Shown here piece by piece: positions 26,386 to 61,881 of a stretch of 64,000 bases of DNA; positions within the stretch are counted from its first letter, which is position 1; every line of letters starts with the position of its first letter. Position numbers and translations under genes: made by a program. The stretch comes from Planctomycetota bacterium (GTDB lineage: Bacteria; Planctomycetota; Phycisphaerae; WQYP01), in the NCBI GenBank assembly GCA_021790385.1, contig JAJYDW010000007.1, forward strand, positions 10,483-74,482, read 5' to 3'. Below the pieces are notes generated by a model that searched no databases, was not told the DNA's origin, and worked only from the letters and a program-made list of their open reading frames with translations.

Positions 26386-26484
26386 AAGAGAGGGCGAGAA
26401 TTGTTGGCGACAGGGTGAATGGAAGCCCAAGCCACCCCAAAAGGGCAAGATGGTGTCAAAATGAACACGAAGGCATAGTCGTAC

Positions 26485-30049: not shown

Positions 30050-30104
30050 TGGGATGGAGGGCGGATTGACACCACACGGCCACAAACAAGAATGTCTGTG
30101 TTAC
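30050..30104 (+). repeat. Intergenic repeat family, copy C (partial; core CACGGCCACAAACAAGAATGTCTGTGTTAC at 30075-30104). A TAAGCGGTCAGCG motif lies at 29957-29969.
   Basis: Seen in sequence, immediately upstream of the kpsF start. Confidence 0.45.
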
Positions 30105-39942: not shown

Positions 39943-39952
39943 GGCTTTTTTG

Positions 39953-41947: not shown

Positions 41948-41965
41948 CCGGAAGCCCGCACCGCC

Positions 41966-45383: not shown

Positions 45384-45528
45384 TATCGTGCTCCTTATTC
45401 TGACTTTTTTACCGCTTCGAGGCTGTACCTCCATGGCACACCGCCCGGCGAATCCCCAAACGATAACCGAATTGACCCCAAATGTCACCAAACCTCGCCC
45501 CCCCCTTAAAATTCTTGACGGAATTTTC

Positions 45529-45619
45529 TTGACTTGCTGTAATTCCTTTGTTATTGTGGCTATTGGAAGTGCATGTTTCCACCGCGTGTTCTCGGAGATG
45601 AGCATAAATCTCCGCCGCG
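45529..45619 (+). promoter_or_regulatory. Promoter-like TTGACT-N17-TATTGT (45529-45557) followed by the conserved leader block GTGTTCTCGGAGAT-gagcataa-ATCTCCGCCGCG (hairpin 45593-45614)
   Basis: Seen in sequence. Homologous to 47918-48005 with compensatory stem changes. About 270 bp upstream of the PEP-CTERM gene at 45889. Confidence 0.45.
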
Positions 45620-45888
45620 TGGAATGAAGGCTTCCCAAAACGGGGCATGCTCATGCCGACCGTTGAAGATTTATCGCGATGGATCGTTGTATTGTTCCCC
45701 TCCGGCCGTGAGGCCGGGGAAGGATGCAGGGTAAGCCTTGCGCCTACTGCCGCAACGATTTCCAGTCAGACCGACATCAAATCGAGCAAAGAGGTGCTTA
45801 TGTGACTGTGCGGATAATTTAGCTCAATGGAAAGGTCCGTTTTCCACGTTTTTACATTTCTCCCGTGTGGAGAGAATTGGAGTTTATC

Positions 45889-46797
45889 ATGAGTAACTTA
45901 CGAAACAAATGTATCGCCATGGCCGTTGGTACCGGTATGCTCGGTGGCATTGCCACCGCTGGAGCCACGGAAATTCCGGCCGGAAACCTGTTTTATCAAA
46001 ATGGGGCCGCCACGGCACCGAATGTATCAACCGTTATCAATAATCCCCAAAATATGAGCGGCGGGTCTTGGGTTGGCGGGACCAATTACTGGGTTGGCGG
46101 TAACAGTCCGGTGCTGGACGGCAGCGTTTCCACAATATGGAACGCCGGCACATTTAGCGGCGGCGGTATGTGCAATGTCGCCATCTCACAGGGTTCGTAC
46201 GATAGCAGCACCTCAACTTTTACATCGGTACCGTTTGGCGCTATCGCAACGATACGTATCTGGGCGGAAAATTATATCAATAGCGACGGCAGCACATGGA
46301 GTTCGATGCCCCAAGTGGTCGCGGTAGGATATACCACCAACAGCAACCTCACTTCGACCATTCGCAACGGCTACTCATTCAATAGCGGCACGGCGGGTAC
46401 CCTGCCGCCAACTTGGAGCACCATGGCCACGATTTCTTCTGTCAATGGCGGCACACCGGGCACACCTTTCGATCCGACGGATTACCCGACCGCTTCGGGT
46501 TGGGTGGCCGGGGATTTTTCGCAAGGCACGGTTACCGGTTTAAATAGTGGACACAGCACGCTGGCCTACATGGATCTGACTGTGAATATTCCCGCTGGTG
46601 CTACCAGTGTCATGATCTCGTTTGGACAGGACAGCGGCATCGCCACTGCACCCAGCCCCAGCTATTACAGCCCCGGCGGCCTGGCAATTGCCGATATCCA
46701 GGCCTATGCTCCGACCATTCCCGAACCCGCTTCGTTGGGTCTATTGGCCTTTGGCGGTCTGGGGCTGTTGTTGCTCAAGCGTCGTAAAACGGCTTGA
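45889..46797 (+). CDS. PEP-CTERM sorting-domain secreted protein (third copy in the window)
   Basis: Signal peptide MSNLRNKCIAMAVGTGMLGGIATAGA. C-terminal PTIPEPASLGLLAFGGLGLLLLKRRKTA. Confidence 0.75.
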   Translation: MSNLRNKCIAMAVGTGMLGGIATAGATEIPAGNLFYQNGAATAPNVSTVINNPQNMSGGSWVGGTNYWVGGNSPVLDGSVSTIWNAGTFSGGGMCNVAISQGSYDSSTSTFTSVPFGAIATIRIWAENYINSDGSTWSSMPQVVAVGYTTNSNLTSTIRNGYSFNSGTAGTLPPTWSTMATISSVNGGTPGTPFDPTDYPTASGWVAGDFSQGTVTGLNSGHSTLAYMDLTVNIPAGATSVMISFGQDSGIATAPSPSYYSPGGLAIADIQAYAPTIPEPASLGLLAFGGLGLLLLKRRKTA

Positions 46798-46874
46798 GGT
46801 CGCCGCAGTAACTGGCAGCGGGGCACCCCTGCCGCTGCACCTGACGATTTCTCCGGCAGCAGAAAGGAGTAGTC

Positions 46875-47864
46875 ATGAATCCGATAAAGCGACGACAAAC
46901 TAAGGAGTTTGCATTCAGTTCTACGGCTGCCCATTTTTGGGGGTCAATGCACGATCGCAGACCCAGAGCATTTACCCTGGTGGAACTGCTGGTGGTCATT
47001 TCCATCATTGCCATTCTTATCTCCTTGCTGCTTCCCGCCCTGGCCAAGGCCCGCTTTTGGGCCAACGTGACGGTATGCGCCAACAACCAGCGGCAGATTT
47101 ACCTGGCCACCGCCATGTACGCCAACGACAATCTGGGGTTCATGCCGGGCTGTGATGCCTTTCAAAGCGTGAGTGGGGGAACCTACGCCACATCCTACGG
47201 CGGCTATCCGTGGGAATTTCAGGATTATTGGTACAGCAATCCCATCTTACCTTCAGGCGTGGTGTGGTCGCAAACAGTACGCTGGTACGGGGTGGGAGTT
47301 TTGATTGGTCAAAAGTACATGCCCCCCACCAATGCCGTGGAATGTCCGGATTTTGCCATTTCACCACAAGCCCAGATCGGCCAGAAATGGAGCAACTACA
47401 CGCAAAATGGCGTGTTTCTGCTGCCGAAGGAATACAACACCGCAGCCGCCGCCGGCGACAGCCCCGAACAGATCGCCAACGCCTGCTTCGGACAAGGCTC
47501 TTACGTGCTTGATACCGAACCGTATTACAACACCTTTGATCCCGGCAATGAATCCCATGGCCGTATCGGACTGCCCGGCACCGAGGGTGGATGGTGGTCG
47601 CCGGGCGGATTGCTCAAAGTGCCGCACATTACTGCGCTGATTATGTGTCTCACGACCTATGCTGATATCAACCCGCAACCGGCGACCATCACGCACGAGA
47701 TGAAGGGCGTCAACTGTACGTATATTGACGGGCACACCCAGTGGCTGCCCATCCACGCGGCGACTTGGAGTTATTTCAATTCCATCGGTTTCCCCGCCAG
47801 TTCCGGCGGCGACATGCGCGGTGCCTATACCTTTTTCCCGTGGGCCACGCAGCAAGGATGGTAA
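46875..47864 (+). CDS. Prepilin-type N-terminal methylation domain protein of the DUF1559 (H-X9-DG) family, second copy
   Basis: RBS AAAGGAG then [30 protein letters not shown]-terminal [13 protein letters not shown]9-DG. Confidence 0.8.
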
Positions 47865-47917
47865 AAGCTTCCAGACGGACGGAGCCAGTGGGTGCAAAGT
47901 GAAAAATAAAAACTGGT

Positions 47918-48005
47918 TTGCTGCTGCAATAGTGCTCTGGTAGTATCGTTTAGCAAATAGGCTTCCCGTGTGTTCTCGGAAATTTTTGCTCATTTCCGCC
48001 GCGGC
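47918..48005 (+). promoter_or_regulatory. Promoter-like TTGCTG-N17-TAGTAT (47918-47946) followed by the leader block GTGTTCTCGGAAAT-ttttgctc-ATTTCCGCCGCGG (hairpin 47977-47998)
   Basis: Seen in sequence. Same flanks as 45586-45619, with a G-C to A-T covarying stem pair and an inverted loop. About 100 bp upstream of the giant Tat/Sec-exported gene at 48104. Confidence 0.45.
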
Positions 48006-48103
48006 TGGCAACTTGGCCTTTAATCAAAACTGAAAATATTGTGGCATCACCATCTGGCCCATGGCCCGGCTTTGGCCGGCTCTTTCGTGCAGAGGTATGA
48101 ATT

Positions 48104-51100
48104 TTGTCCAGCGACAACCGCCCCAATCGCCGCAGTTTTATCAAAACCATGGGCTTGGCCGCCGCCGCGCTGACAGTGGATGCCGCAAGTGGGCGCGGGG
48201 CCAAATTGAACTTTGACCATTTGCCGAAGTTTGCCTCCGGCACGCCGGAATACCCCACACCCTTTCTGGCCATCGCCAGAACCCCGAATCTGATTGCCGC
48301 GCCCCAGGGCGGCGGCATGAATATTGAAAGTGATGTCGGATTTTTATCCGGCTTTTCCGGATTTGTGGACAAGACCACCGGACGCTTCGGCTATCCCGGC
48401 TACAACAATTACACCAACGCCAATTTCTCCTTTGATAACGACAAGCTCGTCATCGTAGCCCATGTGCCTTATCCCGTGATCGGCGATCTGCACCAAGACG
48501 ACACCTTTGAAGTGCTTATTCAACCCCGCGGGCCGCACTCCACCGGATTTGTTTATCGCGTCACCGGCAACGCCTTCGGCCGGTGGCATGCAGATCTTGA
48601 CGAACCGATCATCGGCCAATTTCATCAACCCTGGCATTCCCTCATCCACTATGGTGCCATGCTCTGGAATCCGTCCGGCCTGTGGATGGCCAGCGTGGCT
48701 ATCCCCTGGAAATCGTTGGGAGGCCGGCCCGCCAATGGGGCCGTATGGGGTGTGCAGTTTGCACTGCGTTATCGCCAGCCCACCATCGTCGCTTATCTAA
48801 GCCCCACCGATAAATTCACCGACACCAGGCGTTTCGCCCGCATTCGCTTCGATTTCAACCGCCGCATCAATTACCGTCCCCATTGGCTCAGTGAAGAAAT
48901 GGACACCGGCCACTTTATGGTGCAGTATCTGCTGGCCAACGGCGGCACCAAGCCGGCCACCGTGGAAATGAAAGTGGCCCTCTACAAAGCCGGCCACGAA
49001 TTTGCCCATGCCCAGCTCGAAAAAACCGCACCGCCAGGCTCCACCTATTGGGCAGATAACACCGGCACCAACATGATTTCTCTAAATTCTGAACCTGCCA
49101 CACCTGCCCAGCGCAACACCGTGGCCCATCTGACTGCCTATGACCGCACTAAAAATGCTCTTATCTATGATCAATGGGTGCCTTATTGGCAATTCAAACC
49201 CGGCGAAAATGACTGGATTAAACAGCGCCTGGCGCGACAATTCAGCTTTAACATCGGGCCATATCCATCCATGGGTCTGATCGACTATGCCGTGGATGCA
49301 CGCTCCCTCAAGGAAGTGACACCCACCGCGACCGAGTTTACCTGCGCGGTTCTCGCCGACGGAAAACCCGTCTTGCACCAACGCCGACCGCTGCCTGCCG
49401 ACGGACAAATTACCGGCAGCGTCAATCTGGGTGCCTTTACGGATCGCGTTACCTACGATCTGCAGGCCGACATTCGCGACTCCGAAGGCACCGTGCTCAA
49501 CCAGCGCAGCCGGTCGTTTACCCGTCGTGTGATGCCTTTTGAAAAGGCGCCTCCGGCCGGCGTCGGTGATCATGTATTCCCGCCGTTCACCCCGCCGCGA
49601 ATTCACGGCACCGCTGTTTCCTGCCTGCTTCGCACCTACGTGCATGGCACCAACGGCCTGCTGGAGCAGATCTTCGCCGCCGAACGCAACTTACTCATTC
49701 GCCCCGCCGCTTTTACCGTCGTGCTCGATAACTGGCAGTCTCTGGTATTAACCGCAGGCAGTCCCCACTTGCTACCCCATGGTCTAGGCTCCGTCGATTA
49801 CACCCAGACCTTTCAGGGCGGCGGTGTGGAACTGCTTTTGCACGGAAATTTAGATTACGACGGCTTTTACCATTTTACCGCCACGCTTAGTCCGCAAAGC
49901 CGGCCGGTCACCATTCGTGAATTGCGTTTGCAAATTCCCCTAAGCCCAGCGCATGCTACACTTATTGATGCGGCCGTCACGTGGATGTACCCTGGCTGGG
50001 AAAAGGCACTGGGTTTTTTAAGCCACGGGCACGGCCGAATCTGGGATTCCCACACCCTGCCCATGCAAATGAACAATCGCGTCAGCAATATGCCTCCTTA
50101 TATCTGGGTTGGCGATGACGATCGCGGACTATGCTATTCCTGCCCCTCCGATGAAGGCACACATAACACTCCCGATTTACCTGCTGCGGCATTGGACCGT
50201 GCTGACAACGCTGTCACCTTAAGCATTTGGATGGTCAATCGCACATTGCATCTTGAAAAGCCCCGCCGCTTTCAGTTTGCCCTCCAGGCCAGCCCCTTTA
50301 AGCCGGTAGCCGCCAATGGACGGTTGTGGCGCGATCAGACTACCGCCGCTGCCACTTATAAAAATGGCCTGACCTTCACCGACTTTTGGGATCCGGCATC
50401 CTATCCTACCTATGGCCGCTGGCTGACCCTGGATTATCTCAAAAAACAGGTCGCCGTCGACGGCTGCGACCGCACCGGCCTCGAAGCCTCCGCTCTTTCC
50501 GAATGCGCCGGAACTCCCGAATATCGCCAGTTCTATTACGAATGGGGCAGTGCGATGGACGAATATCAGCAAGTCGTTCCACCCGTCCCCGCCGGGATTC
50601 TCCCACGCTTCAAAGCCAGTGGGGTACGGGCAAATCCATTCGTGATGATCGAAGCTTTTTCCAACACCACCAAAACCAACCGCGATTATCGCGCATGGTG
50701 GCTCTCCGAGGCAGCCAAACACGCTGGCGTCTCATTTGTGTACCAGGACAATCCTACCTGGGTTTTCGCCGACCGCCCTCAGCCGGAATATGGGTATAAA
50801 CGCCCGGATAGCGGCATTGAACCCACCAGCATGATTTGGAAGTCCCGTGATGTTCTCAAACGGTTCTTTCAGGCCGTGGCCGAAGCCGGCCAACCTTCCC
50901 AGCCAGGAATCTGGCCCAACATGATTACCCCGGCAGCGCCTGGCCGATCTTTCTGTGGTAAAGCCCTGGATGGGGAATATACTGATTCTAATAACCTGCG
51001 TATGGGAATGATGCGCGTGCATCTATCCAAACAGTGGGGGTTTGTAGTCGACTGGCTTTGCCAGCCGCCGGCCAGTGCCGGAGCTCAAATTGGCACCACT

Positions 51101-52111
51101 CGCGATTACTGGCGAGCCTTGTTCAGCCAGCTTTGTCTTCTGGATGTTACCAATTTTTCTCGACCGGACACCGCCGAAATCTATAGGCTCTGGTGGAATG
51201 CCCTGGATGTATTCTGGCTCGACGACCCGAGTGTGCACTGGCATCCGTATTACCGCAATCCCACTTTGGCCCAGGCTGAACCTGCCGACACCATCCTGGT
51301 TTCCACCTACACTGCTACCGGACGTTTATTGGCAATCGTTTCCAACTGCGGCCATCAGGACGCCATTGCCACGGTTCGGTTTAAGGATCTGGCTGCATGG
51401 GAGGCCGCTGGTCTGACCCATTTTTATGATGCCGAAACTGCGGAAGAAATCTCGGTTAAAAACGGTCAGTTGCGACTGTTTGTGGCCCGGAAAAATTACC
51501 GCCTGATCATTGGTTTCCGGGGACCGTGGAAGTTTGCCGCTAAAAACCGCCTCCCCCATCCCAACCAAATCCTCACCAACTCGTCCCTGGACCCGCAGGC
51601 CACCATTGGGGAAATTTGTCGCCATCTTCTGACCGCACGCACCCTGCCACCCATGCAGCATGCAGACCAGTTACTGCTGCAATGGGCACAGGAGATTCTC
51701 AAGGAACTTCCCGCAAGTTCTCCGGATATTGCTTATTTTGACGCCAAGGCCATGGCCGACATCCACCTCGGTAACCTGGAAGTTCGTTGTTCCGTGTTCG
51801 TTAACCGTCGCAGTGGTTTCATGCTGGTCGGCTTTTATAACGGCACTGACCAGCACCGGGTGCTTAGTCCCCGGATTTATGACCAGATTGCCGCCAAAGT
51901 CGGCAAACCGGGTTACAATTTTATTTATGATGCCATCGGCGGTCAGTCGGAATGGTCGGAAATTGATCTTCCCGCGCATAGTGGGCGCTGGGAGGTGGCC
52001 TATCAGGATGATCCCGATTACTACGGTGCCCGCCGCGGCGTTTTCAAAATCGGCACGTTGATGTCCAACATCCTGACGGCAGTTGAGGAAAATAAAAAGA
52101 CTCTGCAGTAA
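48104..52111 (+). CDS. Giant (1335 aa) Tat-signal exported protein with an N-terminal CBM9-like (DOMON-like) carbohydrate-binding module and a large domain of unknown function; putative novel CAZyme, paralog of the next gene
   Basis: Twin-arginine signal NRRSFIKTMGLAAAALTVDAAS. CBM9-like segment DNDKLVIVAHVPYPVIGDLHQDDTFEVLIQP...WGVQFALRY. Shares the VSFVYQDNPTWVF / MNGYWWDNGTFWT block with the 52167 gene. The ORF-track start is TTG; an in-frame ATG a few codons upstream is possible. Confidence 0.65.
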   Translation: MSSDNRPNRRSFIKTMGLAAAALTVDAASGRGAKLNFDHLPKFASGTPEYPTPFLAIARTPNLIAAPQGGGMNIESDVGFLSGFSGFVDKTTGRFGYPGYNNYTNANFSFDNDKLVIVAHVPYPVIGDLHQDDTFEVLIQPRGPHSTGFVYRVTGNAFGRWHADLDEPIIGQFHQPWHSLIHYGAMLWNPSGLWMASVAIPWKSLGGRPANGAVWGVQFALRYRQPTIVAYLSPTDKFTDTRRFARIRFDFNRRINYRPHWLSEEMDTGHFMVQYLLANGGTKPATVEMKVALYKAGHEFAHAQLEKTAPPGSTYWADNTGTNMISLNSEPATPAQRNTVAHLTAYDRTKNALIYDQWVPYWQFKPGENDWIKQRLARQFSFNIGPYPSMGLIDYAVDARSLKEVTPTATEFTCAVLADGKPVLHQRRPLPADGQITGSVNLGAFTDRVTYDLQADIRDSEGTVLNQRSRSFTRRVMPFEKAPPAGVGDHVFPPFTPPRIHGTAVSCLLRTYVHGTNGLLEQIFAAERNLLIRPAAFTVVLDNWQSLVLTAGSPHLLPHGLGSVDYTQTFQGGGVELLLHGNLDYDGFYHFTATLSPQSRPVTIRELRLQIPLSPAHATLIDAAVTWMYPGWEKALGFLSHGHGRIWDSHTLPMQMNNRVSNMPPYIWVGDDDRGLCYSCPSDEGTHNTPDLPAAALDRADNAVTLSIWMVNRTLHLEKPRRFQFALQASPFKPVAANGRLWRDQTTAAATYKNGLTFTDFWDPASYPTYGRWLTLDYLKKQVAVDGCDRTGLEASALSECAGTPEYRQFYYEWGSAMDEYQQVVPPVPAGILPRFKASGVRANPFVMIEAFSNTTKTNRDYRAWWLSEAAKHAGVSFVYQDNPTWVFADRPQPEYGYKRPDSGIEPTSMIWKSRDVLKRFFQAVAEAGQPSQPGIWPNMITPAAPGRSFCGKALDGEYTDSNNLRMGMMRVHLSKQWGFVVDWLCQPPASAGAQIGTTRDYWRALFSQLCLLDVTNFSRPDTAEIYRLWWNALDVFWLDDPSVHWHPYYRNPTLAQAEPADTILVSTYTATGRLLAIVSNCGHQDAIATVRFKDLAAWEAAGLTHFYDAETAEEISVKNGQLRLFVARKNYRLIIGFRGPWKFAAKNRLPHPNQILTNSSLDPQATIGEICRHLLTARTLPPMQHADQLLLQWAQEILKELPASSPDIAYFDAKAMADIHLGNLEVRCSVFVNRRSGFMLVGFYNGTDQHRVLSPRIYDQIAAKVGKPGYNFIYDAIGGQSEWSEIDLPAHSGRWEVAYQDDPDYYGARRGVFKIGTLMSNILTAVEENKKTLQ

Positions 52112-52166
52112 CTTTTACCGGATATGGTTTATTGCTTCCTTCACTTTTTTACAACAAGGATTCGTT

Positions 52167-55100
52167 ATGAAACACTCTAGCGTTAGCATCCCAATCCTCA
52201 TCCCGGAAAACCCGTACACGCCGCGATCCGTTTTACTGCTGTGCTTAGCCTTATTGAGCGCACTGGTTTTGGTGGTAAACCCATGCACTACCGCCGCGGC
52301 CCCGGCCAACCCCATCCCCAAACTGCCTCTGCTGCGCATACCGGAACTGACCACCCCCCCCGTGATTACCGGTCGCATCAGCCCCGATCATGTAACCGGA
52401 CAATGGGTGCATGCTGCTCGCCTGACCGGCCTTCAAAATTTCGGCATGGGTACGCTGCCCCCATCCAAACTCCAACCCACCTGGTGGCTGGCGTACGATA
52501 AAACTCATCTGTATCTGGCTTCTTACTTTCCCGCGTATCCAAAAGGTACCATCGTTGCTCAGGTCAAACACGGCGATGAGGGTGGTCTAAACCCGCATGC
52601 CGGTGATATTCTCGGCGATGACCACGTTGAAATACAAATTTGTGATCTGCCCAAACGATCCGAAGCCGTCACCAAGTATTTTTACAAGATCATGACCAAT
52701 CCTTATGCCGCGGTGGTGGATCAACGTATTGAGTGGTCGGTTGGCTGGATGGGTTATGAATGGCAATCAGGTGCTATCGTCAAGTGCCATACCACCAGAA
52801 ATGGCTGGTCCATGGAAATGGCCGTTCCCCTGAAAAGCATGAATCATCTGGTGGCTCCACCCAACAACACTCAATGGTTTATACAATTGGCCGATGCTAA
52901 CGGTGAATCTCCATATTACGCCTGGCAGCCGGTGCTGTTTACCGATTGGGATCACATGGGATCCATCGTGTTTGATTCCCACGCACCTGTGTTTCAACTG
53001 CTGAGCCTGGGCCATGTCCAGCATGGGCAGATGGATGTACAAGCCGCCATCAACGTGCCCCACGGACAACCACCCGTACAAATGCGGGTACGCGTGCTGG
53101 GTGCCGGCGGAAAGATATTATTCGTCCGCACCCGATCCGTGCCGGCCAACGGAAAGCCCACCGCACTGCGTTTTCACAAAAACGGACTGCCTGTAGGTGG
53201 CCACGGCCAGACCATGGATATTCTGGCCTGGCAAGGCCACAAAATCATCTATCGCGACTCCATGCCGTTTGACACTATCACCGCCGCCGATCTCAAAAAC
53301 ATGTACACCGCTATTGCCGCCAATCGGCACAACCTCGGCCAGCCCAATCTTTCCTCCTGTTATTATCAGTCTTATCATACGCTCACGGCGCGCTGTGATG
53401 TGAATATTCTCGAAATCAATCCTACGATCCGCACGGCTAAAATTCTTCGTGCCAGTATTGTACGTGTTGGCCATAAAAAGCCACTGGTCAGTGCTGATGG
53501 CGTTATCCAGCCGGATGGCCTGGGACGAATTCAAGTTTCCACGGGCAAATTGCCGCTCGGCAAATATCAGGTTATCACGCAGATCATAGGAAACCGCGGT
53601 CAGGTACTCGCGTCACGCATCGATCCCTTCGCAGTCAAACACTTCCCATGGGAGCACAACAAGCTCGGTGAAGAGCACATCGTTGCGGCTCCGTTCACAC
53701 CGGTGAAAGTGCTGGGATCTACGCTGCATGTCTGGGATCGGGCTTATCATTTCGCAGCAACAGCATTACCGAGTTCCATTATCAGCCTGGGCCGGAACAT
53801 GCTTGCCGCTCCCATCACTCTCACCGGAACTATTGATGGCAAAAAAATTCCGCTGGTAAGTATCGGCCGACCTGCCTGGACGCACGTTTCCGGCTACAGT
53901 GCCACCGTAACCGGTCATGGCCAGATAGGCCCTCACGTGCATGTTACCATTAAGGCCAAAACCGAATATGACGGTACCACGTTTTACACTCTAACCCTTA
54001 CGCCTCATGGCTTGGCCAAGATAAACGAATTATCCATGGTCATTCCCCTGCATAAACTCATGAACTGGGAGGCCATGCGCAGCAGTGGACGCGATATGCC
54101 CTATGGTACCATTGGTGAGGGCACGCCGGATGGCGTATTCTGGAAATCCTCCGAACTGCCTGCCGCAGCATTTATTCACGACACCTTCCTGCCCTACTGC
54201 GTGATTTCCGACGGTCAGCGAGCTTTGTCCTGGGCGGCAGATTCAGATCAAGGCTGGATGGTGAGTAACCACCGGGCATCTTTTCTGCTGGAGAAGCACG
54301 CCAACCGTCAAATCTGGATGCACGTGCGGTTTGTCGATACGCCATCGGTCCTCAAAACTGCCCATACCATTCACTTCATGCTCACCGCCATGCCCATGAA
54401 ACCCAAGCCCGCAGATTGGCGCTATCGCATGTGGGGCATGCCTAACGCCGCCTTTGGCTACATGTCTGGTTGGCAAGGCAGCAACATGTGGGCTTATGGT
54501 TGCGGCCCCACTATCAGCTTTAGAAATCAGAATCAATTCGAAATCCTACGCCATTTACTTTCCGCCGATCGCCAAAGGGTGCGGCTGGCCGCCGAAAGCG
54601 TGCCCGGGCCCAAGTATCCGCCCATGAGCATGTGGTACGTTTCCGCCAACACCTGGGGCTACGCCATGCCTGAATACCCCACTTACAGCGGAGAATGGAC
54701 CGGCATGACCCATCCTCCCATTAATCCACAGCGCAGCTACATCAATTTCAAAAGTCCCTTCGGTGTCTGGAGCACCGCTCGCGAACAAACCCGCGGCGGC
54801 ATGGACCTTATTCAATCCGCCATCGACTGCCGCGTCTACGACTTTGACCAAGAGCAGAAAAAGGCCGGCATGAACGGCTACTGGTGGGATAACGGCACTT
54901 TCTGGACTTCCGGCAACCTTATCAAGGGCACCGCTTACATCCGCAACGGCCATATCCAGGGCATTTATAACATCACCCTGATGCGCCAGATGCTCAAGCG
55001 CATGGCAGTGGTTTCACAACTCAACCACATCACCCCCTTCCAAAGCATGTATGCCCATGGAGAAATTGGTCCTCTGGCTGGTTTTGTTAACTGGCTCTGG

Positions 55101-55727
55101 GCCATTGAAGGGCCTTGGTACCTCAACAGCGACAAGGTGGACCTGGTGCAAAATATCCAAGGAGGTCTCAACGGTATCCGCACAATCCTACAGACGTATC
55201 AGGGCTTGCCCATTTCCATGGATAACAACACGCAGGATCAGTCCAGCAATGACAACGCCAATCCGTGGCAAACACGCTCCTGCCTTGGTGTGGCTCTGCT
55301 TTTTGATGTAGGTGACGGCTGGAATGGTGGCATCAACGGATTCTGTCAGCACAAGCTGGTTCAAGCCCTGAACCGCTTTGACTATTTCAACCATCGTGTA
55401 AAGTGGGTTCCTTACTGGCGAACGGCCAAACTGGTGAATGTTCACGGCGGCCACATTGTCACCACTCTCTACATCCGCAAACTGCGCGGACAGACTCCCG
55501 GCATCATGCTGGTGCTTTTTAATGATGGCCACCATACGGCCACCGTCAGTGTGCAGGCCAATACCAATAAACTGCTCGGTCTGGCCCGCAAATATACCAC
55601 CCTGCATGACCTGGAGAATTGGAGTGCCAACCCTGTTCCCATGCTCGCTGGGCGCTGGGGGGGCATTACCATACCCCGCCACGATTTTCGCCTGATGCTG
55701 CTGGGACCACGGGCTGATGGTAACTAA
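52167..55727 (+). CDS. Giant (about 1185 aa) signal-peptide exported protein with a CBM9-like N-terminal module; paralog of the preceding gene
   Basis: Signal/TM MKHSSVSIPILIPENPYTPRSVLLLCLALLSALVLVV. CBM9-like TWWLAYDKTHLYLASYFPA...GDDHVEIQICD...WFIQLADANG. Start at the internal ATG (the ORF track begins at 52083). Confidence 0.65.
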   Translation: MKHSSVSIPILIPENPYTPRSVLLLCLALLSALVLVVNPCTTAAAPANPIPKLPLLRIPELTTPPVITGRISPDHVTGQWVHAARLTGLQNFGMGTLPPSKLQPTWWLAYDKTHLYLASYFPAYPKGTIVAQVKHGDEGGLNPHAGDILGDDHVEIQICDLPKRSEAVTKYFYKIMTNPYAAVVDQRIEWSVGWMGYEWQSGAIVKCHTTRNGWSMEMAVPLKSMNHLVAPPNNTQWFIQLADANGESPYYAWQPVLFTDWDHMGSIVFDSHAPVFQLLSLGHVQHGQMDVQAAINVPHGQPPVQMRVRVLGAGGKILFVRTRSVPANGKPTALRFHKNGLPVGGHGQTMDILAWQGHKIIYRDSMPFDTITAADLKNMYTAIAANRHNLGQPNLSSCYYQSYHTLTARCDVNILEINPTIRTAKILRASIVRVGHKKPLVSADGVIQPDGLGRIQVSTGKLPLGKYQVITQIIGNRGQVLASRIDPFAVKHFPWEHNKLGEEHIVAAPFTPVKVLGSTLHVWDRAYHFAATALPSSIISLGRNMLAAPITLTGTIDGKKIPLVSIGRPAWTHVSGYSATVTGHGQIGPHVHVTIKAKTEYDGTTFYTLTLTPHGLAKINELSMVIPLHKLMNWEAMRSSGRDMPYGTIGEGTPDGVFWKSSELPAAAFIHDTFLPYCVISDGQRALSWAADSDQGWMVSNHRASFLLEKHANRQIWMHVRFVDTPSVLKTAHTIHFMLTAMPMKPKPADWRYRMWGMPNAAFGYMSGWQGSNMWAYGCGPTISFRNQNQFEILRHLLSADRQRVRLAAESVPGPKYPPMSMWYVSANTWGYAMPEYPTYSGEWTGMTHPPINPQRSYINFKSPFGVWSTAREQTRGGMDLIQSAIDCRVYDFDQEQKKAGMNGYWWDNGTFWTSGNLIKGTAYIRNGHIQGIYNITLMRQMLKRMAVVSQLNHITPFQSMYAHGEIGPLAGFVNWLWAIEGPWYLNSDKVDLVQNIQGGLNGIRTILQTYQGLPISMDNNTQDQSSNDNANPWQTRSCLGVALLFDVGDGWNGGINGFCQHKLVQALNRFDYFNHRVKWVPYWRTAKLVNVHGGHIVTTLYIRKLRGQTPGIMLVLFNDGHHTATVSVQANTNKLLGLARKYTTLHDLENWSANPVPMLAGRWGGITIPRHDFRLMLLGPRADGN

Positions 55728-55773
55728 ACCCGTTTGCCTTGCAAGTTGAGCAACTTCTCGGAGAATATGCCAC

Positions 55774-57816
55774 ATGGCTTCCAAACTTGATCATAATACC
55801 ACTCTGCGCGTGGAGTTAAATCCCCGGATCGGCACAGTGGATCTGTACAACACCGCCACCGGCGACGGATGGTACGGCCTGCAATTCTTTCTGCGTTGCG
55901 GCGCGAGGGAATATCGCCCCCGGTTACTCAAGTCTGCCAGACACCAAAAAGGTAAGACCACCTGGCAGGTGGAGTTGGCTCCCGGCCTGCGCGTTTATTT
56001 TGCAGCCATGACTTCCCCTGCCGGCAGTGGAATATGGCTTTGTCCGCGTTTGGTCAACCGTTCTGACCGCACCTTTCAGTTTACTTCGTACGGTATGGCC
56101 ACGGCCTCTGGCGCTATAGGACCACAACTTCACCACACCAGTTTGCCCGTATTTGCCCACAGCGAAAATCTGCGTTATGAAGACCTGCCCGTGTCCAGGC
56201 AAACCTTCCCCTTCATCCGTCCTTTGCCGGAGCAAGGCCGATGGTTTGGCCGCCAGGGAATCGGACCAATTCCCGCGATGGTTTTAGGCAGACGCGATCA
56301 CAATCGCTGGCTTGTGGAAGGTTCAGCTTCCCAGGACCGAGCCACCGCATCCTGGCATTTGTCCTTGCCCACCCAGTCCGACCGCATGGTGGATTATTGC
56401 AGTGAATACATGTGGAATGGCCAATCGCAGGAGGCTCTGGCCGCCGGTCAGACTATGGATCTCGAATCCTGCCTGTATCAGATTATCAACGGCGAGCCAG
56501 ACCAATTGTATGAATCATACACCACGGAGTTATCGGCAATCCATGGCCGGCGCTTCGCCGGTACCACCAGCCGCCTGGCCCATGAGCCGGTTTACTGCAC
56601 CTGGAACTATGGGATTTACACCAACATCACCGAAGATGTCTGCATCAAGAGAATTAAAATCGCCGGCCAGTTGCAAAACGGTGGCATTTTTCAACTGGAC
56701 CATGGCTATCAGCCACCGCACGCACCCCACGCATCCTGGGGCTATCTGGATGCCTATTATCCTGACGCTACCCACACCTGGGATACGGCACGCTTTCCCG
56801 GCGGACCACGCCGGATTGTAAAGGAATCGCAACGTCATGGCCTTACGCCCGCCATCTGGTGGACCCCGCGATTGGATATCGGCGGGCCTATCGCCACCGA
56901 CCACCCGGATTGGATCGCCATCAATCGCCACGGCCGACCGATTGAACACGTTGGTGATTTACATCCGGATTATTCCGTCCCCGCCGTCCGCGACTTTATC
57001 CAGCGCACCATTCGCACCATCATCCACGATTGGGGCTTTGCGGGCATCAAGCTCGATTTTTTTTCTTGGGCCTTTGATGCTCCCGACCTGGCCTATCGCT
57101 ACGGTGGAACGAGCGTGCAATGGCGTCGCTGGCTGCTGGGCCTGATTCGCCGGGAATTGGGACCGCGTGGCTACTTCCTCTATTGTATCTCCTGCCCGCT
57201 TGGCAATCCTTTTCTGGCTCTGGACGGTTGTGATTCCTTCCGTGCCGGAACGGACATCGACCGCGGTCACTGGGCTACGCATGTCGCCAATTGCAGTTGG
57301 TTCCTGGCGTCGTTTCCGGCCTGTGGCCGGCGTACCTGGTTTACCGACATGGACAGCTTCATGGGTTCGCCGGAATTTCCTGCAAACGAGCGCCGCTTCC
57401 GCTGCGCCATGGGCTACCTGACCTCCGGCATGATGGATTTTTCAGGTCCTATTGAACAACTGGACCAGGCCGCATTACGGGATTACCGGCGACTCTGCCA
57501 ACGCTGTGATCAGGGCGGCAAGGTTTTGGTGCCGGATCGGGAAGCCTTTTATGGCCGGCCGTTGCCTGCCATCCTCATGCGTCCTCATGCCGCCGATAGC
57601 CGCACTCGCCGTCGCTTCGGCGTGCAGGCCACAATTGGCCTGTTTAACTGGGACACCCACCCGCGGGCCATGAGTGTGGCGCTGGATACCTGGTGCCGCA
57701 AAGGCTTTAGACTTCGCGTGCAGGACTTCTGGACCAGTCGCCCGGTGAGGGTTGATAACGGTCTGCTGACCGCCAACTTACTGCCCCGCCACCATTTGCT
57801 TGTGGATATTATGTAA
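55774..57816 (+). CDS. GH36-like (clan GH-D, melibiase-type) glycoside hydrolase, putative alpha-galactosidase or related
   Basis: TIM-barrel region CTWNYGIY...GIFQLDHGYQ...HGLTPAIWWTP...HPDWIAINRHG...DLHPDYSVPAVRDFI...WGFAGIKLDFF parallels the GH36 motifs (LDDGW, GLWFEP, HPDW, KWDMN). No signal peptide is evident. Confidence 0.55.
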   Translation: MASKLDHNTTLRVELNPRIGTVDLYNTATGDGWYGLQFFLRCGAREYRPRLLKSARHQKGKTTWQVELAPGLRVYFAAMTSPAGSGIWLCPRLVNRSDRTFQFTSYGMATASGAIGPQLHHTSLPVFAHSENLRYEDLPVSRQTFPFIRPLPEQGRWFGRQGIGPIPAMVLGRRDHNRWLVEGSASQDRATASWHLSLPTQSDRMVDYCSEYMWNGQSQEALAAGQTMDLESCLYQIINGEPDQLYESYTTELSAIHGRRFAGTTSRLAHEPVYCTWNYGIYTNITEDVCIKRIKIAGQLQNGGIFQLDHGYQPPHAPHASWGYLDAYYPDATHTWDTARFPGGPRRIVKESQRHGLTPAIWWTPRLDIGGPIATDHPDWIAINRHGRPIEHVGDLHPDYSVPAVRDFIQRTIRTIIHDWGFAGIKLDFFSWAFDAPDLAYRYGGTSVQWRRWLLGLIRRELGPRGYFLYCISCPLGNPFLALDGCDSFRAGTDIDRGHWATHVANCSWFLASFPACGRRTWFTDMDSFMGSPEFPANERRFRCAMGYLTSGMMDFSGPIEQLDQAALRDYRRLCQRCDQGGKVLVPDREAFYGRPLPAILMRPHAADSRTRRRFGVQATIGLFNWDTHPRAMSVALDTWCRKGFRLRVQDFWTSRPVRVDNGLLTANLLPRHHLLVDIM

Positions 57817-57829
57817 ATAAAGGGAACCG

Positions 57830-60409
57830 ATGCCTCGTACCATAGTCACCCATTGGCAACACGCCCCCACCGGAGCCGCCGGCATCTGTGATGCCCATTG
57901 CCGGTACCCCGGTGTGCCGGTGGCCATAGACATGCAAAAACACGTCGGCCGCAACCGTATCATTTACAATGGTCCCGCTGCGGTTTGGTCTGAAGGCTTG
58001 CCCATGGGTAATGGCGATTTAGCCGCCATGGCTTTTCAACCTGCCGGCTCCCTGTGCTGGGGACTCACCAAATCAGATGTTCGTGATCTGCGACATCCTG
58101 TGGTTCCCTGGTGCGATCATCCCACCATGCGTCGTATCTTTGAAAAGGAACACAACCATTTACTCACCGATCAGATCAACGAAGAAGAATGGGATTTTCG
58201 CACCTATTTTCCCTGCTTTCTCCCCGCGGGAGGCCTATGGCTTAGCGCCCTGCAAGAAGGCGAACTGGCCGTTCAACGGCAGGTGCTGGATTTATATCAG
58301 GCCCAGCACAACATGGAGTTGGCTGGTGGTGGCCAGGTTACCAGCTTCGTTTATGCCGATGCCAATGTACTCGTCGTTCGGTTGACCGGTATGAAAGGGA
58401 TGCAACTGCGTTTGCGATTCGGCCCTGAGGCCATTGAGCCAGGCCGTGCCGGTGAGCCTGATTCTCCCACGGCACAATTGATCCGCAAGGAAATTTTCCG
58501 CCGTCAATTACGCCAGTGGCAACCCGATCAGGGGCGATTACAGGTGGACTATGCCGATGGCCATCGTACACTTCTGATGCTGCAAATTCGCGGAGCCACG
58601 CTTGACTATCGTGCATCCGATGCCGAGGAGGCCACGGTGGACTTGCAGGCCGACACCGTAGATATTCTGATGACCATTGCCACATCACGCCAGGGTGCAT
58701 TTTTGCAGCGCCGCGCCTCCCTCCTGCTGGAAACCGCGTGGCAGCGCAACGTGGACCGGTTGCTTGCCGATCATCACACCTGCTGGCATGAACGCTGGAG
58801 CCGTTCCGCAGTACAACTGCCCCAACGCATTTTGGAAAGCCTTTGGTGCTACGCCATATACACTATGGCCTCCAGCAGTCGAGCCGCGTATCCAGCCCCG
58901 CTCATGTCCGCCTGGCATTTACGCCTGGATCAACCCTACGGCGGTGATTTTCATAACAACATCAATTCGCAGATGTGCTATTGGCCCCTCCCCGCGGCCA
59001 ACCATGCAGATATCATGGAACCTTTTCTCAAGCATTTCTGGTCGGTCATGCCGGAAATGGAAATGGAGACCAGGCGTGTCTGGAATCTACCCGGCATCAA
59101 GGTACCCTTTGCCAGCATTGGTCGAGGTATCGATCATTGGGGCGTTGGATACTGGCGATACGAGCTTTTTGTTTCAGCATGGCTCGCCCAGATCGCCTGG
59201 TGGCATTATGAATTCACCGGTGATCGCAAGATGCTTTTGCAATTCGGTTGGCCGCTGATTCAGGCTGTGGCTGAATTTTACCTGGCCTATCTCGATGTCG
59301 ATCCGGCCACCGGCAGACTTTCGCTGCCACTGACCAAACTCTGCGAAGACACCATGTTCAACGTAGTTCCTGCGCAACGGCTGGTCCGTGATGCCGGCCT
59401 GGACCTGACCGCTGTCCACAGTCATCTGCGCGATGCTGCACAGGCGGCCGAGGTAGTCGGTCAACCCCAGGATGCCGCCCGTTACCGCGCTACCATCAAC
59501 AAACTCAATCCGCTGCCGGTTACCGACGGCCAATTTGCCATTGCATCCGGAATGACCATGGACGTACCTGTTTCCCATCCTTATCAGTTAGCGGCTATTT
59601 ATCCGGCCGGCCTTGTAACCCAGCTTGGACCTGCCTCTTTGTTGCCTGTTGCGCAGCGCACCCTGGCTAACGTTTGGAGATGTTCCTCGCGGGTCAGCAT
59701 CGGTCAGCCCGATACCGAACGGCTTCGCTGGAATGATGATCTCTCTATGGGTTGGATCGGCACGGCCAGAGCCTGGATGAGCGATGGAGATGGCGCTCTT
59801 GATGCCTTGCTTAATGGATGGGTCACCAGCACACTTAAAACCAACGGCTTTTTAGCCGAGCAAGCACGCCAGCCGGGCGAACGCTCCACCATGGGCTGGA
59901 TGCAGAATCAGCTTTGCGGACTTGCCAACGGCATCAATGAAATGCTCCTGCAAAGTCATTCCGGTATCATCCAGATTTTTCCCGCATTACCTTCCACCTG
60001 GACCGATGTCGGCTTTGTACACCTGCTGGCCAGGCCTGGCGTACGAGTTTCCGCCCGGCGCTGCGGGGGTAACACTCAATGGGTGGTGCTTTCCGCGGAA
60101 AATAAAGCGGCGGTATGCCTCCGCAACCCCTGGCCGGGGCAAATAGTTGATTCGCTGGCCGTGGTAGACACGTGCTTTCCAGACCGGCTAATGCCCATCG
60201 TCTGCAACGATGCCGGGCATCTGCTGCTGACCCTGCTGCCACATCAGCCGCTGATGGTAGTGCCCAAGGAACACCTTCCCGTCGAAACTCTAATTGAGGC
60301 TCCAGAGGATGATGGAACCGCTCCCTGGTCCTTTACCGGACCCATTCCGCTGCGCCACGAGGATCCGCCGCCGGACGGCACCTGGACGAGCTGGTGGGGC
60401 AAGCCGTAG
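57830..60409 (+). CDS. GH95-like glycoside hydrolase (putative alpha-L-fucosidase or alpha-L-galactosidase), 859 aa
   Basis: N-terminal AAVWSEGLPMGNGDLAAMAF...LCWGLTKSDVRD matches the GH95 N-terminal beta-sandwich signature (PA..W.EALPIGNG.LGAMVFG). The size fits GH95 enzymes. Family assignment is tentative. Confidence 0.45.
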   Translation: MPRTIVTHWQHAPTGAAGICDAHCRYPGVPVAIDMQKHVGRNRIIYNGPAAVWSEGLPMGNGDLAAMAFQPAGSLCWGLTKSDVRDLRHPVVPWCDHPTMRRIFEKEHNHLLTDQINEEEWDFRTYFPCFLPAGGLWLSALQEGELAVQRQVLDLYQAQHNMELAGGGQVTSFVYADANVLVVRLTGMKGMQLRLRFGPEAIEPGRAGEPDSPTAQLIRKEIFRRQLRQWQPDQGRLQVDYADGHRTLLMLQIRGATLDYRASDAEEATVDLQADTVDILMTIATSRQGAFLQRRASLLLETAWQRNVDRLLADHHTCWHERWSRSAVQLPQRILESLWCYAIYTMASSSRAAYPAPLMSAWHLRLDQPYGGDFHNNINSQMCYWPLPAANHADIMEPFLKHFWSVMPEMEMETRRVWNLPGIKVPFASIGRGIDHWGVGYWRYELFVSAWLAQIAWWHYEFTGDRKMLLQFGWPLIQAVAEFYLAYLDVDPATGRLSLPLTKLCEDTMFNVVPAQRLVRDAGLDLTAVHSHLRDAAQAAEVVGQPQDAARYRATINKLNPLPVTDGQFAIASGMTMDVPVSHPYQLAAIYPAGLVTQLGPASLLPVAQRTLANVWRCSSRVSIGQPDTERLRWNDDLSMGWIGTARAWMSDGDGALDALLNGWVTSTLKTNGFLAEQARQPGERSTMGWMQNQLCGLANGINEMLLQSHSGIIQIFPALPSTWTDVGFVHLLARPGVRVSARRCGGNTQWVVLSAENKAAVCLRNPWPGQIVDSLAVVDTCFPDRLMPIVCNDAGHLLLTLLPHQPLMVVPKEHLPVETLIEAPEDDGTAPWSFTGPIPLRHEDPPPDGTWTSWWGKP

Positions 60410-60528
60410 TTTGCCGGGCCAGGCTCATCAGCCAAGCCCTCTTGAACAAAGGCTTCCGCCTGCCGCATTTCATCGGAAGCCTGTCGCGCACAAAATGCTG
60501 CACCGATTATGAAAGCGATTAAAATTTT

Positions 60529-61851
60529 ATGCCATCGAATCAGCCCACATCTTCCCCTCAGCCAGCTCTAACCCCACAGAAATTCAGCGATCTCCGCTAT
60601 GGCATGATTGTTCATTATGGCCTTTACAGCCTGCTGGGGCGAGGCGAATGGGCTCTCAACCGTGAACGAATCAACCTGGAGGAGTATCGCTCCCTGACGG
60701 CGCAGTTCACCGCCAAAAATTTTGACGCAGATGTTCTTTGCAGACTGGCCGTTTCCGCCGGCATGCGTTATCTGGTATTCACCACCATGCACATCGACGG
60801 CTTTCGATTGTACAACACGGTCCATAGCCCCTTCACATCGATGCACGCGGCCTGTCATCGAGATTTAACCGCCGAGGTTATTGCTGCCGCCCGCCGCCAC
60901 GGCCTCTACATCGGCCTGTATCACAGCCTCACCAATCTGATGGATCAACCCGATGGTGCAGACGCTCTGGAAAATCCCGCCGCCTACCGCACCTTCATCG
61001 CCCGCACCCATCAGCGCCTGGAAGAACTGGTGCGGTGCTACACCCCCATAGATATCCTCTGGTACGATGGCTGGTGGCCCTTCAACGACCGAGGCTGGCA
61101 AGCCCAGACCATGAATGCTTTGGTTCGATCCATCCAGCCCCACCTCATCGTCAACGGCCGCAATGGCCTGCCCGGTGACTTTTCCACTCCGGAAGGCCAT
61201 TTGTCGGCACCCCGTCCGTGGCGGCCATGGGAGGCCTGCATGACTCTCAACAACAGTTGGGGCTACCATCAGGGCGACCATGAATGGAAGACGCCCGGCC
61301 AGGTTGTGGACATGCTCGCCACTGTTGCTGCCGATCACGGCAATCTCCTGTTAAACGTCGGACCGCGTGGTGACGGCTCTATTCCCCAGCCAACCATTGA
61401 AGTCCTGGAAACAGTTGGTCAATGGCTTGAGCGTTGCGGCGAATGCATCTTTCATACGGACCGGTTTACCTACGGCCTGCGGGAGCGCGGCGACCACCGC
61501 GGAGATTGGCATCATCATGGCCCCATGACTGCCCGCGGCAATAGCCTTTATCTGCTGTTGCGCCGGTGGCCTGGACGAGAAATGGCCCTCGGCGGCTTGC
61601 AATCTCGCGTGCTCAAGGCCACCCTGCTGGGCATACCTGACTCTGCCAAAGCTGGGCCTCTACAGGTAGTTCAAACCCCCGACCGTCTGGCCATTCGTGG
61701 TTTGCCCGACAATCCACCCGATCCGGTCTGTACGGTACTCGCTTTGGAATGTGACCATCCACCGGTGCTGAATTTAACCGGTGGCATGCGGGTACCGCGG
61801 GTACCGCATCCTCCGTACGATCCGTGTCCGTCCGATTTGGCCCATAGCTGA
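60529..61851 (+). CDS. Alpha-L-fucosidase, glycoside hydrolase family 29
   Basis: KFSDLRYGMIVHYGLYSLLGRGEW (GH29 HWG.YS..EW motif). ILWYDGWWP (nucleophile region). C-terminal beta-sandwich domain. Confidence 0.85.
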   Translation: MPSNQPTSSPQPALTPQKFSDLRYGMIVHYGLYSLLGRGEWALNRERINLEEYRSLTAQFTAKNFDADVLCRLAVSAGMRYLVFTTMHIDGFRLYNTVHSPFTSMHAACHRDLTAEVIAAARRHGLYIGLYHSLTNLMDQPDGADALENPAAYRTFIARTHQRLEELVRCYTPIDILWYDGWWPFNDRGWQAQTMNALVRSIQPHLIVNGRNGLPGDFSTPEGHLSAPRPWRPWEACMTLNNSWGYHQGDHEWKTPGQVVDMLATVAADHGNLLLNVGPRGDGSIPQPTIEVLETVGQWLERCGECIFHTDRFTYGLRERGDHRGDWHHHGPMTARGNSLYLLLRRWPGREMALGGLQSRVLKATLLGIPDSAKAGPLQVVQTPDRLAIRGLPDNPPDPVCTVLALECDHPPVLNLTGGMRVPRVPHPPYDPCPSDLAHS

Positions 61852-61881
61852 TATGATTCCAATACAAAAAAGGAGCCTTCC

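Follow-up and report, generated by a model that had tools for sequence, protein, structure and literature searches.

A 64-kb stretch of DNA from an uncultured bacterium of the class Phycisphaerae (phylum Planctomycetota), referred to here as the window, carries two copies of a short hairpin-forming element, each lying between a sigma70-like promoter and the genes of one of two units in a cluster for the degradation of fucose-containing glycans. On balance, we lean toward the view that the element is a new promoter-proximal leader RNA module that docks a putative trans-acting factor. A sigma70-type promoter 16 to 28 nucleotides (nt) upstream would drive its transcription, placing the module, in sense orientation, at the start of the mRNA, where it would fold into one long irregular hairpin with an invariant, doubly bulged center. 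Attached to different promoters that head operons of one functional set in a soil and freshwater Phycisphaerae clade, the hairpin would be where a trans-acting factor docks; this factor, probably a protein, would coregulate these operons after initiation, through either transcript elongation (processive antitermination) or mRNA stability. The set found downstream of the element comprises PEP-CTERM lectin-like genes, pseudopilin-like genes, GDSL esterase-GH29 fucosidase operons, a GH38 mannosidase gene, and giant GH123-like genes.

Planctomycetota, and Phycisphaerae especially, are major degraders of complex, sulfated or fucosylated polysaccharides. We know of no description of how these bacteria switch on such large enzyme sets, a limited literature search having found none, and to our knowledge few regulatory RNAs have been described for the phylum. 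An element that is compact, well defined, and supported by covariation, and that links several promoters of one glycan degradation gene set, is a handle for defining a regulon by genome scanning and a bait for the regulator, and it offers a testable case of postinitiation control in a phylum of poor genetic tractability. As suggested in the original prediction, which had been made from the letters of the window, we compared the element with Rfam and found that no family matches it: among the 4,227 models of Rfam 15, a cmscan of positions 45100-48400 at an E value of ≤10 gave four weak hits, none of them on the element, and the whole window gave 0 hits at the gathering score. A limited search of the literature likewise found no leader motif described for these genes or for Phycisphaerae. 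We therefore regard the element as a new family of orphan cis-regulatory leader RNA, so far restricted to one Phycisphaerae clade. In its conservation and covariation upstream of a coherent gene set, it is like the orphan leader motifs that Rfam holds (e.g., those from comparative genomics, PMC2864571), although no model matches it.

Copies in the window and in relatives

The starting point was a block, GTGTTCTCGG-(A/G)AT-N8-AT(T/C)TCCGCCGCG, said to be shared by two intergenic regions. A pattern search bears this out, with exactly 2 matches in the 64 kb when 3 mismatches are allowed and 0 in 100 shuffles, and a covariance model of the element, run over the whole window, finds no copy beyond these two. 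Each block is 34 nt long, copy 1 reading GTGTTCT CGGAGAT GAGCATAA ATCTCCG CCGCG and copy 2 reading GTGTTCT CGGAAAT TTTTGCTC ATTTCCG CCGCG (for coordinates, see Table 1). The 7-bp stems and the paired G-to-A and C-to-T change between them are present as first described, and the inversion of the loops is real, since GAGCATAA, when reverse complemented, becomes TTATGCTC, which matches the TTTTGCTC of copy 2 at 7 of 8 positions. The two intergenic regions are otherwise unrelated, sharing only the block and, exactly 52 nt before it, TTGCTG. When the leaders were folded, both copies adopted the expected structure, with 51-nt folds of −21.2 kcal/mol (z = −4.0) for copy 1 and −16.1 kcal/mol (z = −1.4) for copy 2; the minimum-free-energy fold of the copy 1 region (45564-45641) has −29.9 kcal/mol.

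The PEP-CTERM protein encoded after copy 1 is found in metagenome assemblies only. Its homologues are labeled Phycisphaerae, and contigs encoding homologues of 85 to 45% identity carry the element, as found by pattern search and by a covariance model that recovers the copies in relatives. The search of related genomes thus extended the collection to 17 distinct copies of about ten independent types, all from Phycisphaerae metagenome contigs (alignment A4; loci are numbered with an L, and a and b tell apart two copies of one genome). Copies stand before PEP-CTERM genes (L131, L133a, and L135a), before a pseudopilin-like gene heading a SASA/GDSL-GH29 operon (L133b), before GDSL-GH29 operons (L135b, L223a, and L226), before the gene for a 303-amino-acid (aa) secreted protein followed by GDSL and GH29 genes (L227), and before a GH38 mannosidase gene (L223b), and every copy is on the strand of its downstream gene. 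Loci picked only for a GH29 close to that of L133 contributed 4 new copies in 58.8 kb, all of them directly upstream of GDSL-GH29 or GH38 genes. One GH29 relative (P0029, 69% identical, present in two assemblies at L224 and L225 with GntR-family neighbors) has no copy at its loci, so the element does not accompany GH29 everywhere.

Broader scans yielded little else. A flank-only pattern, GTGTTCTCGG-N16-CCGCCGCG, scanned over species-representative genomes, matched almost exclusively G+C-rich coding noise, and among the matches listed, the only real copies were those of L004 and L097, two Planctomycetota metagenome-assembled genomes (MAGs) that are 89 to 91% identical to the window here. A search of metagenome contigs with the PEP-CTERM protein returned three loci, all of known types. 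Viral contigs gave 81 matches, the sole perfect stem among them (L151) lying within a phage coding region, and all were treated as noise.

Covariation and strand of the fold

The 17 copies align readily. Their consensus fold, on the sense strand, is built on a lower helix of 5 or more pairs that the bulged U10 breaks up; a 4-nt bulge, UUCU or UUCC, leads to the upper helix, 7 bp long with C-G and G-C as its first pairs, and a variable loop of 5 to 8 nt caps the hairpin. RNAalifold returned the identical structure from the alignment alone. The bases G9 U10 G11 U12 U13 C14, C16 G17, and C36 G37 C38 C39 G40 are invariant. They make up a center, 5′-Y-G-(U)-G-[UUCY]-C-G-G...C-C-G-C-C-G-3′, in which two G-C pairs are split by the bulged U and are followed by the pyrimidine bulge and a helix of C-G, G-C, and G-C, whereas the upper helix, loop, and outer helix vary as long as pairing holds. 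With additional outer helices, the hairpin grows to about 70 nt; in copy 1 and L227, these helices reach the predicted transcript start (GGAAGU...GCUUCC). The outermost pair of the copy 1 hairpin changes from U·G to U-A in L127, and the lower and upper helices of copy 2 agree across the lineages that have this copy.

Standard pairs fill 95.1% of the pair cells of the alignment, compared with 84.7% in shuffles and 37 to 55% when partners are slid by 1 to 3 columns, and 26 cells carry changes on both sides of a pair. For four of five measures of pairing, 0 of 500 shuffles reach the observed values. Compensatory differences are found even within single genomes, between window copies 1 and 2 and between the a and b copies of L133, L135, and L223: L133a has CGGGAAU/AUUCCCG and a lower helix of GAC/GUC, versus CGGA-U-ACCG/CGGU-UCCG and AAU/GUU in L133b, and the upper helix of L135b, CGAAGAU/AUCUUCG, differs compensatorily from that of L135a. 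Non-Watson-Crick cells are G·U in 8 cases and A·C in 3, and pair 8-40 is C-G in some copies and U·G in others, an alternation seen in at least four lineages and tolerated only if the sense strand folds. The excess of G·U over A·C likewise indicates a sense-strand structure. The view that the structure is selected and does not reflect chance is supported by the 17 copies from relatives, with 7 of 12 pairs changed on both sides, and the structure marks the leaders of two units of one glycan degradation cluster. Selection appears to act on the element in the form of a folded single strand, which would most simply be mRNA, whether nascent or mature; as judged by sequence alone, this strand could also be the nontemplate strand of the DNA.

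The same data bear on the proposal that the palindrome is an operator for a dimeric regulator, a double-stranded DNA site at about +10 to +50 at which a bound repressor would block promoter escape. Roadblock repressors typically bind just beyond the promoter, and CGG...CCG is symmetric. However, the invariant bases lack twofold symmetry: opposite columns G9-C14 and C16-G17 of the left side there is only C36-G40, and nothing on the right mirrors GTGTTCY, the longest invariant stretch. Sites of one genome differ at stem positions 3 to 7 and in the lower helix yet stay complementary, which a protein reading the duplex does not require; the outer helix covaries too, and G·T is preferred over A·C. 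Furthermore, a probable duplex operator in the same window looks different, being a perfect palindrome, TTTAACCGGTTAAA, over the −10 box of three promoters beside a LacI-family gene. An operator of this kind is thus not supported, and we consider it quite improbable.

The paired change in the window had originally been taken as the signature of selection. As proof, it is weak, since one compensatory change between two paralogous copies does not prove selection and since the change is not independent of the loop inversion. The 22-nt stem-loop of copy 2 is that of copy 1 turned over, while the flanks stay in direct orientation. Copy 1 of L004 has G·T at the fifth stem pair (CGGAGAT GAGCATAA ATTTCCG), and resynthesis of an L004-like left arm and loop from its own loop and right arm gives CGGAAAT TTATGCTC ATTTCCG, from which copy 2 differs by one substitution. 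A single template-switch mutation leaves just this footprint, a "compensatory mutation plus loop inversion" (PMC8794818), and one such event explains the paired change and the inverted loop together. The likeness to the published pattern lies in the single pair changed on both sides and in the reverse-complemented loop of copy 2 relative to copy 1; the difference is that template switching (PMC8794818) is a mutational mechanism, which accounts for the origin of copy 2 but not for the conservation of the family. The two copies would provide, within a functional hairpin, a clean natural example of a template switch that left a paired change and an inverted loop. The loop keeps one orientation at each position, GAGCAYAA in copy 1 and its complement in copy 2, in four lineages with several assemblies each, and a flip tolerated since before these lineages split suggests that the loop is not the recognized part. 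An invertible DNA switch or lox-like site for a tyrosine recombinase was rejected on account of this fixed orientation; there is also no recombinase among the neighbors.

Since the difference between copies 1 and 2 amounts to exactly one template-switch event and the flanks of the two copies are otherwise unrelated, one might suppose that the palindrome has no function, being propagated and kept perfect by template switching or belonging to a miniature mobile element or a family like the repetitive extragenic palindromes (REPs). REPs occur in many copies, in both orientations, and mostly after genes, whereas the window has just two copies of the element, and all 17 copies are in the sense orientation, in leaders, 16 to 28 nt from a −10 box. 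Orthologous positions are kept from 89% DNA identity down to 45% protein identity, and the block is the conservation maximum of both spacers. We regard the absence of a function as very unlikely. The complementarity of the loops raises the further idea that kissing of GAGCAUAA and UUUUGCUC (45600-45607 and 47984-47991) couples the fates of the two transcripts. The loops are complementary at 7 of 8 positions in the window, and all four lineages with both copies retain a 5-bp core, GAGCA/UGCUC. Against this, complementarity drops without covariation to 6 of 8 in L004 and 5 of 8 in L127, no complementarity exists between the paired loops of L133, L135, and L223, and shared descent through loop inversion accounts for what complementarity there is, making a kissing interaction extremely unlikely.

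Position in the transcript and candidate modes of action

Promoter-like hexamers were found where the original prediction had placed them (Table 1). In orthologues, the copy 1 promoter reads TTGACT-N17-TAAAAT, TAAAGT, or TACTAT, and the −10 box of copy 2 reads TAATAT or TAACAT at the same place; in close relatives, the −10 hexamers drift toward the consensus (TATTGT, TAAAGT, and TAAAAT for copy 1 and TAGTAT, TAATAT, and TAACAT for copy 2). Taking the transcript to start about 7 nt after the −10 box, a position derived from consensus hexamers only, we place the block at about +21 to +54 for copy 1 and about +16 to +49 for copy 2, which corrects the earlier estimate of about +5 to +45; +1 would be close to the start of the outer helix enclosing the block. 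A sigma70-like −10 box ends 16 to 28 nt before the block in 17 of 17 copies, most of which have a good −35 box at a spacing of 16 to 19 nt, whereas the block begins anywhere from 66 to 303 nt before the start codon. With the distance to the promoter constrained and that to the start codon variable, the element is tied to the transcript start and not to the ribosome-binding site.

Together, promoter and block are the conservation maximum of both spacers in four lineages, with 100% identity at 45584-45603 and 90 to 95% at 47965-48004, versus 25 to 50% further down the leaders. The stretch 47925-48004 is the most conserved of the copy 2 intergenic region, and the copy 1 hairpin region is 80 to 100% identical across the four lineages, with 25 to 50% in the rest of the leader. 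The promoters themselves are of different types, GGAATT-N3/4-TTGAC before PEP-CTERM genes, CCCCTTGCATCAAC before GDSL genes (in two of three copies, L135b and L223a), and an A-tract type before the giant genes, so that the same element, found under three promoter classes, behaves as a separate module. The GGAATT that precedes the −35 TTGAC by 3 to 4 nt in promoters of the PEP-CTERM type occurs at window copy 1 (45514-45534), L133a (L133:~760), L135a (L135:~150), and L227 (L227:~1270), and within 45514-45534 of the window, TTCTTGAC is directly repeated (TTCTTGACggaattTTCTTGAC); GGAATT may be an activator site or an UP-type element.

A hairpin at this position might simply be a generic 5′-terminal stabilizer, shielding the mRNA 5′ end from 5′-end-dependent RNases without any specific partner, as the ompA leader hairpin does in Escherichia coli. 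In keeping with this, the outermost helix comes within a few nucleotides of the predicted start in copy 1 and L227, and it is the distance to the promoter, not to the gene, that is constrained. A stabilizer, however, needs a stem and not a sequence, yet G9, U10, G11, U12, U13, C14, C16, G17, and C36-G40 are invariant while the helices change, even where the neighboring PEP-CTERM proteins are only 45 to 55% identical; moreover, the helix of L133b begins several nucleotides after the predicted start. We therefore regard a generic stabilizer as rather unlikely. Invariant bulges combined with free helices point instead to a specific binding site.

Among the mechanisms that had been listed for the element, namely, transcription attenuator, RNA thermometer, operator, and other cis-regulatory RNA, only the last survives. 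An attenuator is not supported: no U-tract follows the hairpin, which is followed by CCGCGUGGAAUG or CCGCGGCUGGCA, a terminator scan found nothing at either copy, and L223b, L135b, and L223a have 32 to 65 nt to the start codon without a terminator-like hairpin followed by a U-tract. A weak terminator-like site is present only after copy 2 (48062-48079) and is not kept in L127. A thermometer of the ROSE or fourU type is equally unsupported, since, at the distances from the start codon given above, no ribosome-binding site is occluded.

Several other candidates were tried and rejected. A leader peptide can be read in copy 1 (AUG AGC AUA AAU CUC CGC CGC GUG GAA UGA), but copy 2 has no AUG there. 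A K-turn was dismissed because no tandem G·A pairs flank the bulge, a CsrA site because GGA is in the stem and not in the loop, and a sigma-54 or extracytoplasmic function (ECF) promoter reading of the block because no −24/−12 or GGAAC/CGTC spacing is consistent across copies. A search for conserved GGAA or AGAA elsewhere that could pair with the UUCY bulge found no consistent partner. A 64-aa gene has been called over copy 1 in a public assembly (L001:2545-2739, corresponding to window positions 45433-45627), and window open reading frames (ORFs) on both strands run over both copies; the 64-aa gene is not supported, and these calls are probably spurious, caused by the G+C-rich palindrome.

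The bulged helix could itself bind a metabolite, such as a breakdown product of fucosylated glycans, and control Rho-dependent termination or stability in the manner of a riboswitch. The element has a regulon-specific place in leaders, an invariant internal-loop region, and variable helices, and the untranslated leaders can be as long as 303 nt. Weighing more heavily, about 16 invariant nucleotides in a two-helix hairpin, with no multihelix junction or pseudoknot, are little for an aptamer, no conserved expression platform is seen, the start codon of L223b comes just 32 nt after the block, and no Rfam family matches; such an aptamer is decidedly improbable. Taken more broadly, as a self-sufficient regulatory RNA, either a tiny aptamer sensing a fucosylated-glycan breakdown product or a put-like RNA acting directly on RNA polymerase, and one of a kind so far undescribed in Planctomycetota, the alternative is improbable; if true, the hairpin would license transcription through glycoside hydrolase operons of about 15 kb and would be the first RNA-level control of polysaccharide use in Planctomycetota.

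We favor a docked protein that would act after initiation because the element is tied to the transcript start, because one of its targets is a 15-kb operon, and because there are precedents in LoaP-dfn, UpxY-opsX, N-boxB, and Tat-TAR. HIV-1 TAR is a hairpin at the 5′ end of the transcript whose 5′-strand pyrimidine bulge, flanked by G-C pairs, is recognized by a factor that makes elongation processive. The analogy with TAR is architectural only and implies no homology, TAR being from a eukaryotic virus and having a 3-nt UCU bulge and a required hexaloop.

Among bacteria, small leader hairpins recruit elongation factors to long operons in the case of LoaP with the dfn hairpin (PMC12691694) and of UpxY with opsX (PMC11685472). 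The LoaP-binding dfn/mln hairpin of Bacillus velezensis, which serves antitermination by a NusG paralogue (PMC12691694), resembles our element in being a small 5′-leader hairpin of long, costly operons, in occurring as near-identical copies in the leaders of a few operons of one regulon, and in being a protein docking site and not a terminator. In contrast to the UNCG tetraloop of dfn and the NusA-dependent intrinsic terminator in its leader (PMC12691694), the element has a variable loop of 5 to 8 nt, an invariant bulged helix, and no conserved terminator, and no NusG paralogue was seen among the neighbors. The ops/JUMPstart element of RfaH and the opsX of Bacteroides UpxY (PMC11685472) are likewise leader elements of polysaccharide-related operons that recruit an elongation factor through a hairpin of the sense (nontemplate) strand. 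Whereas ops is a 12-nt element of the nontemplate DNA, GGCGGTAGnnTG, at a pause site, the present element spans about 47 to 70 nt with covarying helices, which points to RNA. An ops element was rejected for the two leaders, as GGCGGTAGnnTG is not matched at ≤2 mismatches within 45558-45888 or 47947-48103. The resemblance to these precedents is one of logic and not of membership, none of their defining features having been seen in the leaders and neighborhoods searched.

Several points weigh against the docking module. No conserved terminator lies downstream among the copies, leaving an antiterminator no target, and no candidate for a binding protein is consistently encoded beside the element in 12 loci; the NusG/KOW family is absent from the Pfam labels of the neighbors in these 12 loci and from the window ORFs scanned, the rest of the genomes not having been searched. 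The start sites are placed by consensus hexamers alone, and the −35 match is poor in L135b, L223a, L223b, and L226. As for the structure, template switching is able to keep hairpins perfect without selection (PMC8794818), and the shuffle controls ignore relatedness. The sample is small, with its roughly ten types from one clade, and the four newest copies score 23 to 39 bits, overlapping with noise loci preselected for 18 invariant bases (up to 28 bits); they are convincing because of their location and not because of score alone.

Neighboring genes and other features of the window

The genes next to the two copies are given in Table 1. From the first giant gene to the GDSL esterase gene, 48104..62889 is an unbroken row of about 14.8 kb on the + strand, and the 29-nt overlap or gaps of 13 to 119 nt between its members suggest that the row is cotranscribed. 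The giant gene at 48104 had been described as CBM9-like, which we could not confirm, its sole Pfam match being GH123_N. The upstream neighbors of the two units, on the opposite strand, encode a DUF3467 protein and a uracil-DNA glycosylase.

Table 1. Positions of promoters, hairpins, and genes of the two units in the window
Feature	Position	Strand	Details
sigma70-like promoter, PEP-CTERM/pseudopilin-like unit	45529..45557	+	TTGACT-N17-TATTGT, TGn-extended −10; consensus scan and own scoring
Copy 1, full predicted 5′-proximal hairpin	45565..45635	+	Outermost helix GGAAGU/GCUUCC, middle helix UUCCAC/GUGGAA, then core
Copy 1, conserved core	45586..45619	+	G(U)G - UUCU bulge - CGGAGAU - loop GAGCAUAA - AUCUCCG - CC - GCG; covariance model 59.5 bits
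PEP-CTERM protein, 302 aa, first gene after copy 1	45889..46797	+	Pfam PEP-CTERM
Prepilin-type N-terminal methylation-motif protein, 329 aa	46875..47864	+	Pfam N_methyl
sigma70-like promoter, glycoside hydrolase operon	47918..47946	+	TTGCTG-N17-TAGTAT, TGn-extended −10; own scoring
Copy 2, full predicted hairpin	47961..48009	+	Includes lower helix CCGUG/CGCGG
Copy 2, conserved core	47970..48003	+	G(U)G - UUCU bulge - CGGAAAU - loop UUUUGCUC - AUUUCCG - CC - GCG; covariance model 54.9 bits
Two GH123_N-like giants, after copy 2	48104-52111, 52083-55727	+	Pfam GH123_N (gene at 48104)
GH31/melibiase-like gene	55774-57816	+	
GH95	57830-60409	+	
GH29 alpha-L-fucosidase	60529-61851	+	
GDSL esterase	61882-62889	+	

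The PEP-CTERM protein encoded after copy 1 is predicted by AlphaFold to form a beta-sandwich (predicted local distance difference test score [pLDDT], 66; predicted template modeling score [pTM], 0.70), with weak Foldseek matches to CBM32 sugar-binding modules and to a GH29-associated module. Its family (15 aligned members) has conserved GNLFxQNG, SPVLDG..W, TIRIWA, and IPAGATSVMISFGQ motifs and no Pfam domain besides the sorting signal. On the strength of the modeled galactose-binding-domain/CBM32-like fold, it may be a cell surface lectin for glycans cut by the adjacent enzymes. Copy 1 of L004 (MAG MAS4.bin39) heads a four-gene unit, because its distance to the orthologue of the window gene is taken up by two additional PEP-CTERM genes on the reverse strand, at 2460-3275 (272 aa) and 3384-4175 (264 aa).

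Folding also predicts a second small hairpin in the copy 1 leader (45640..45668, + strand), ACGG-GGCAU-GCUC-AUGCC-GA-CCGU. This hairpin and a block, GCGATGGATCGTTGT (45684-45698), are kept in the window, L097, L004, and L127, in contrast to the divergence of the other 190 nt of this leader. Both are missing from the other motif copies. The second hairpin is specific to the PEP-CTERM leader of the closest relatives and, being absent from other copies, may not be part of the motif.

Just upstream of the cluster, 34966-44005 encodes a 1,658-aa FtsX-domain protein, a 671-aa domainless protein, and a DUF6785/DUF6784 protein, a conserved row also found in L123 and L127, which may encode transport or export machinery tied to the glycan genes. 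Elsewhere in the window, a promoter-plus-operator motif, TTGACAA-N5-GTTTAACCGGTTAAACT, in which the perfect palindrome TTTAACCGGTTAAA overlaps the −10 box, occurs three times (20973-21001, 21221-21249, and 26484-26512). The genes that follow it encode a second PEP-CTERM protein (21291) and a DUF1559 protein (26517), and beside it lies a divergent LacI-family gene (19185-20393, − strand), of whose product the palindrome is probably the operator. With LacI-type operators in one place and the bulged hairpin in the other, two similar gene sets of the window would be under two different control devices. Two families of short intergenic repeats, each with 87 to 90% identity between members, look like REP-type repeats: the first (13254-13283 and 20619-20648) has the form TGCGGGCAGGA...CGCG.TCCCAGGGAT, and the second (13361-13390, 30075-30104, and about 20674-20700) has the sequence CACGGCCACAGGCAAGAATGTCTGTGCTAC, with the inverted repeat CACAG...CTGTG.

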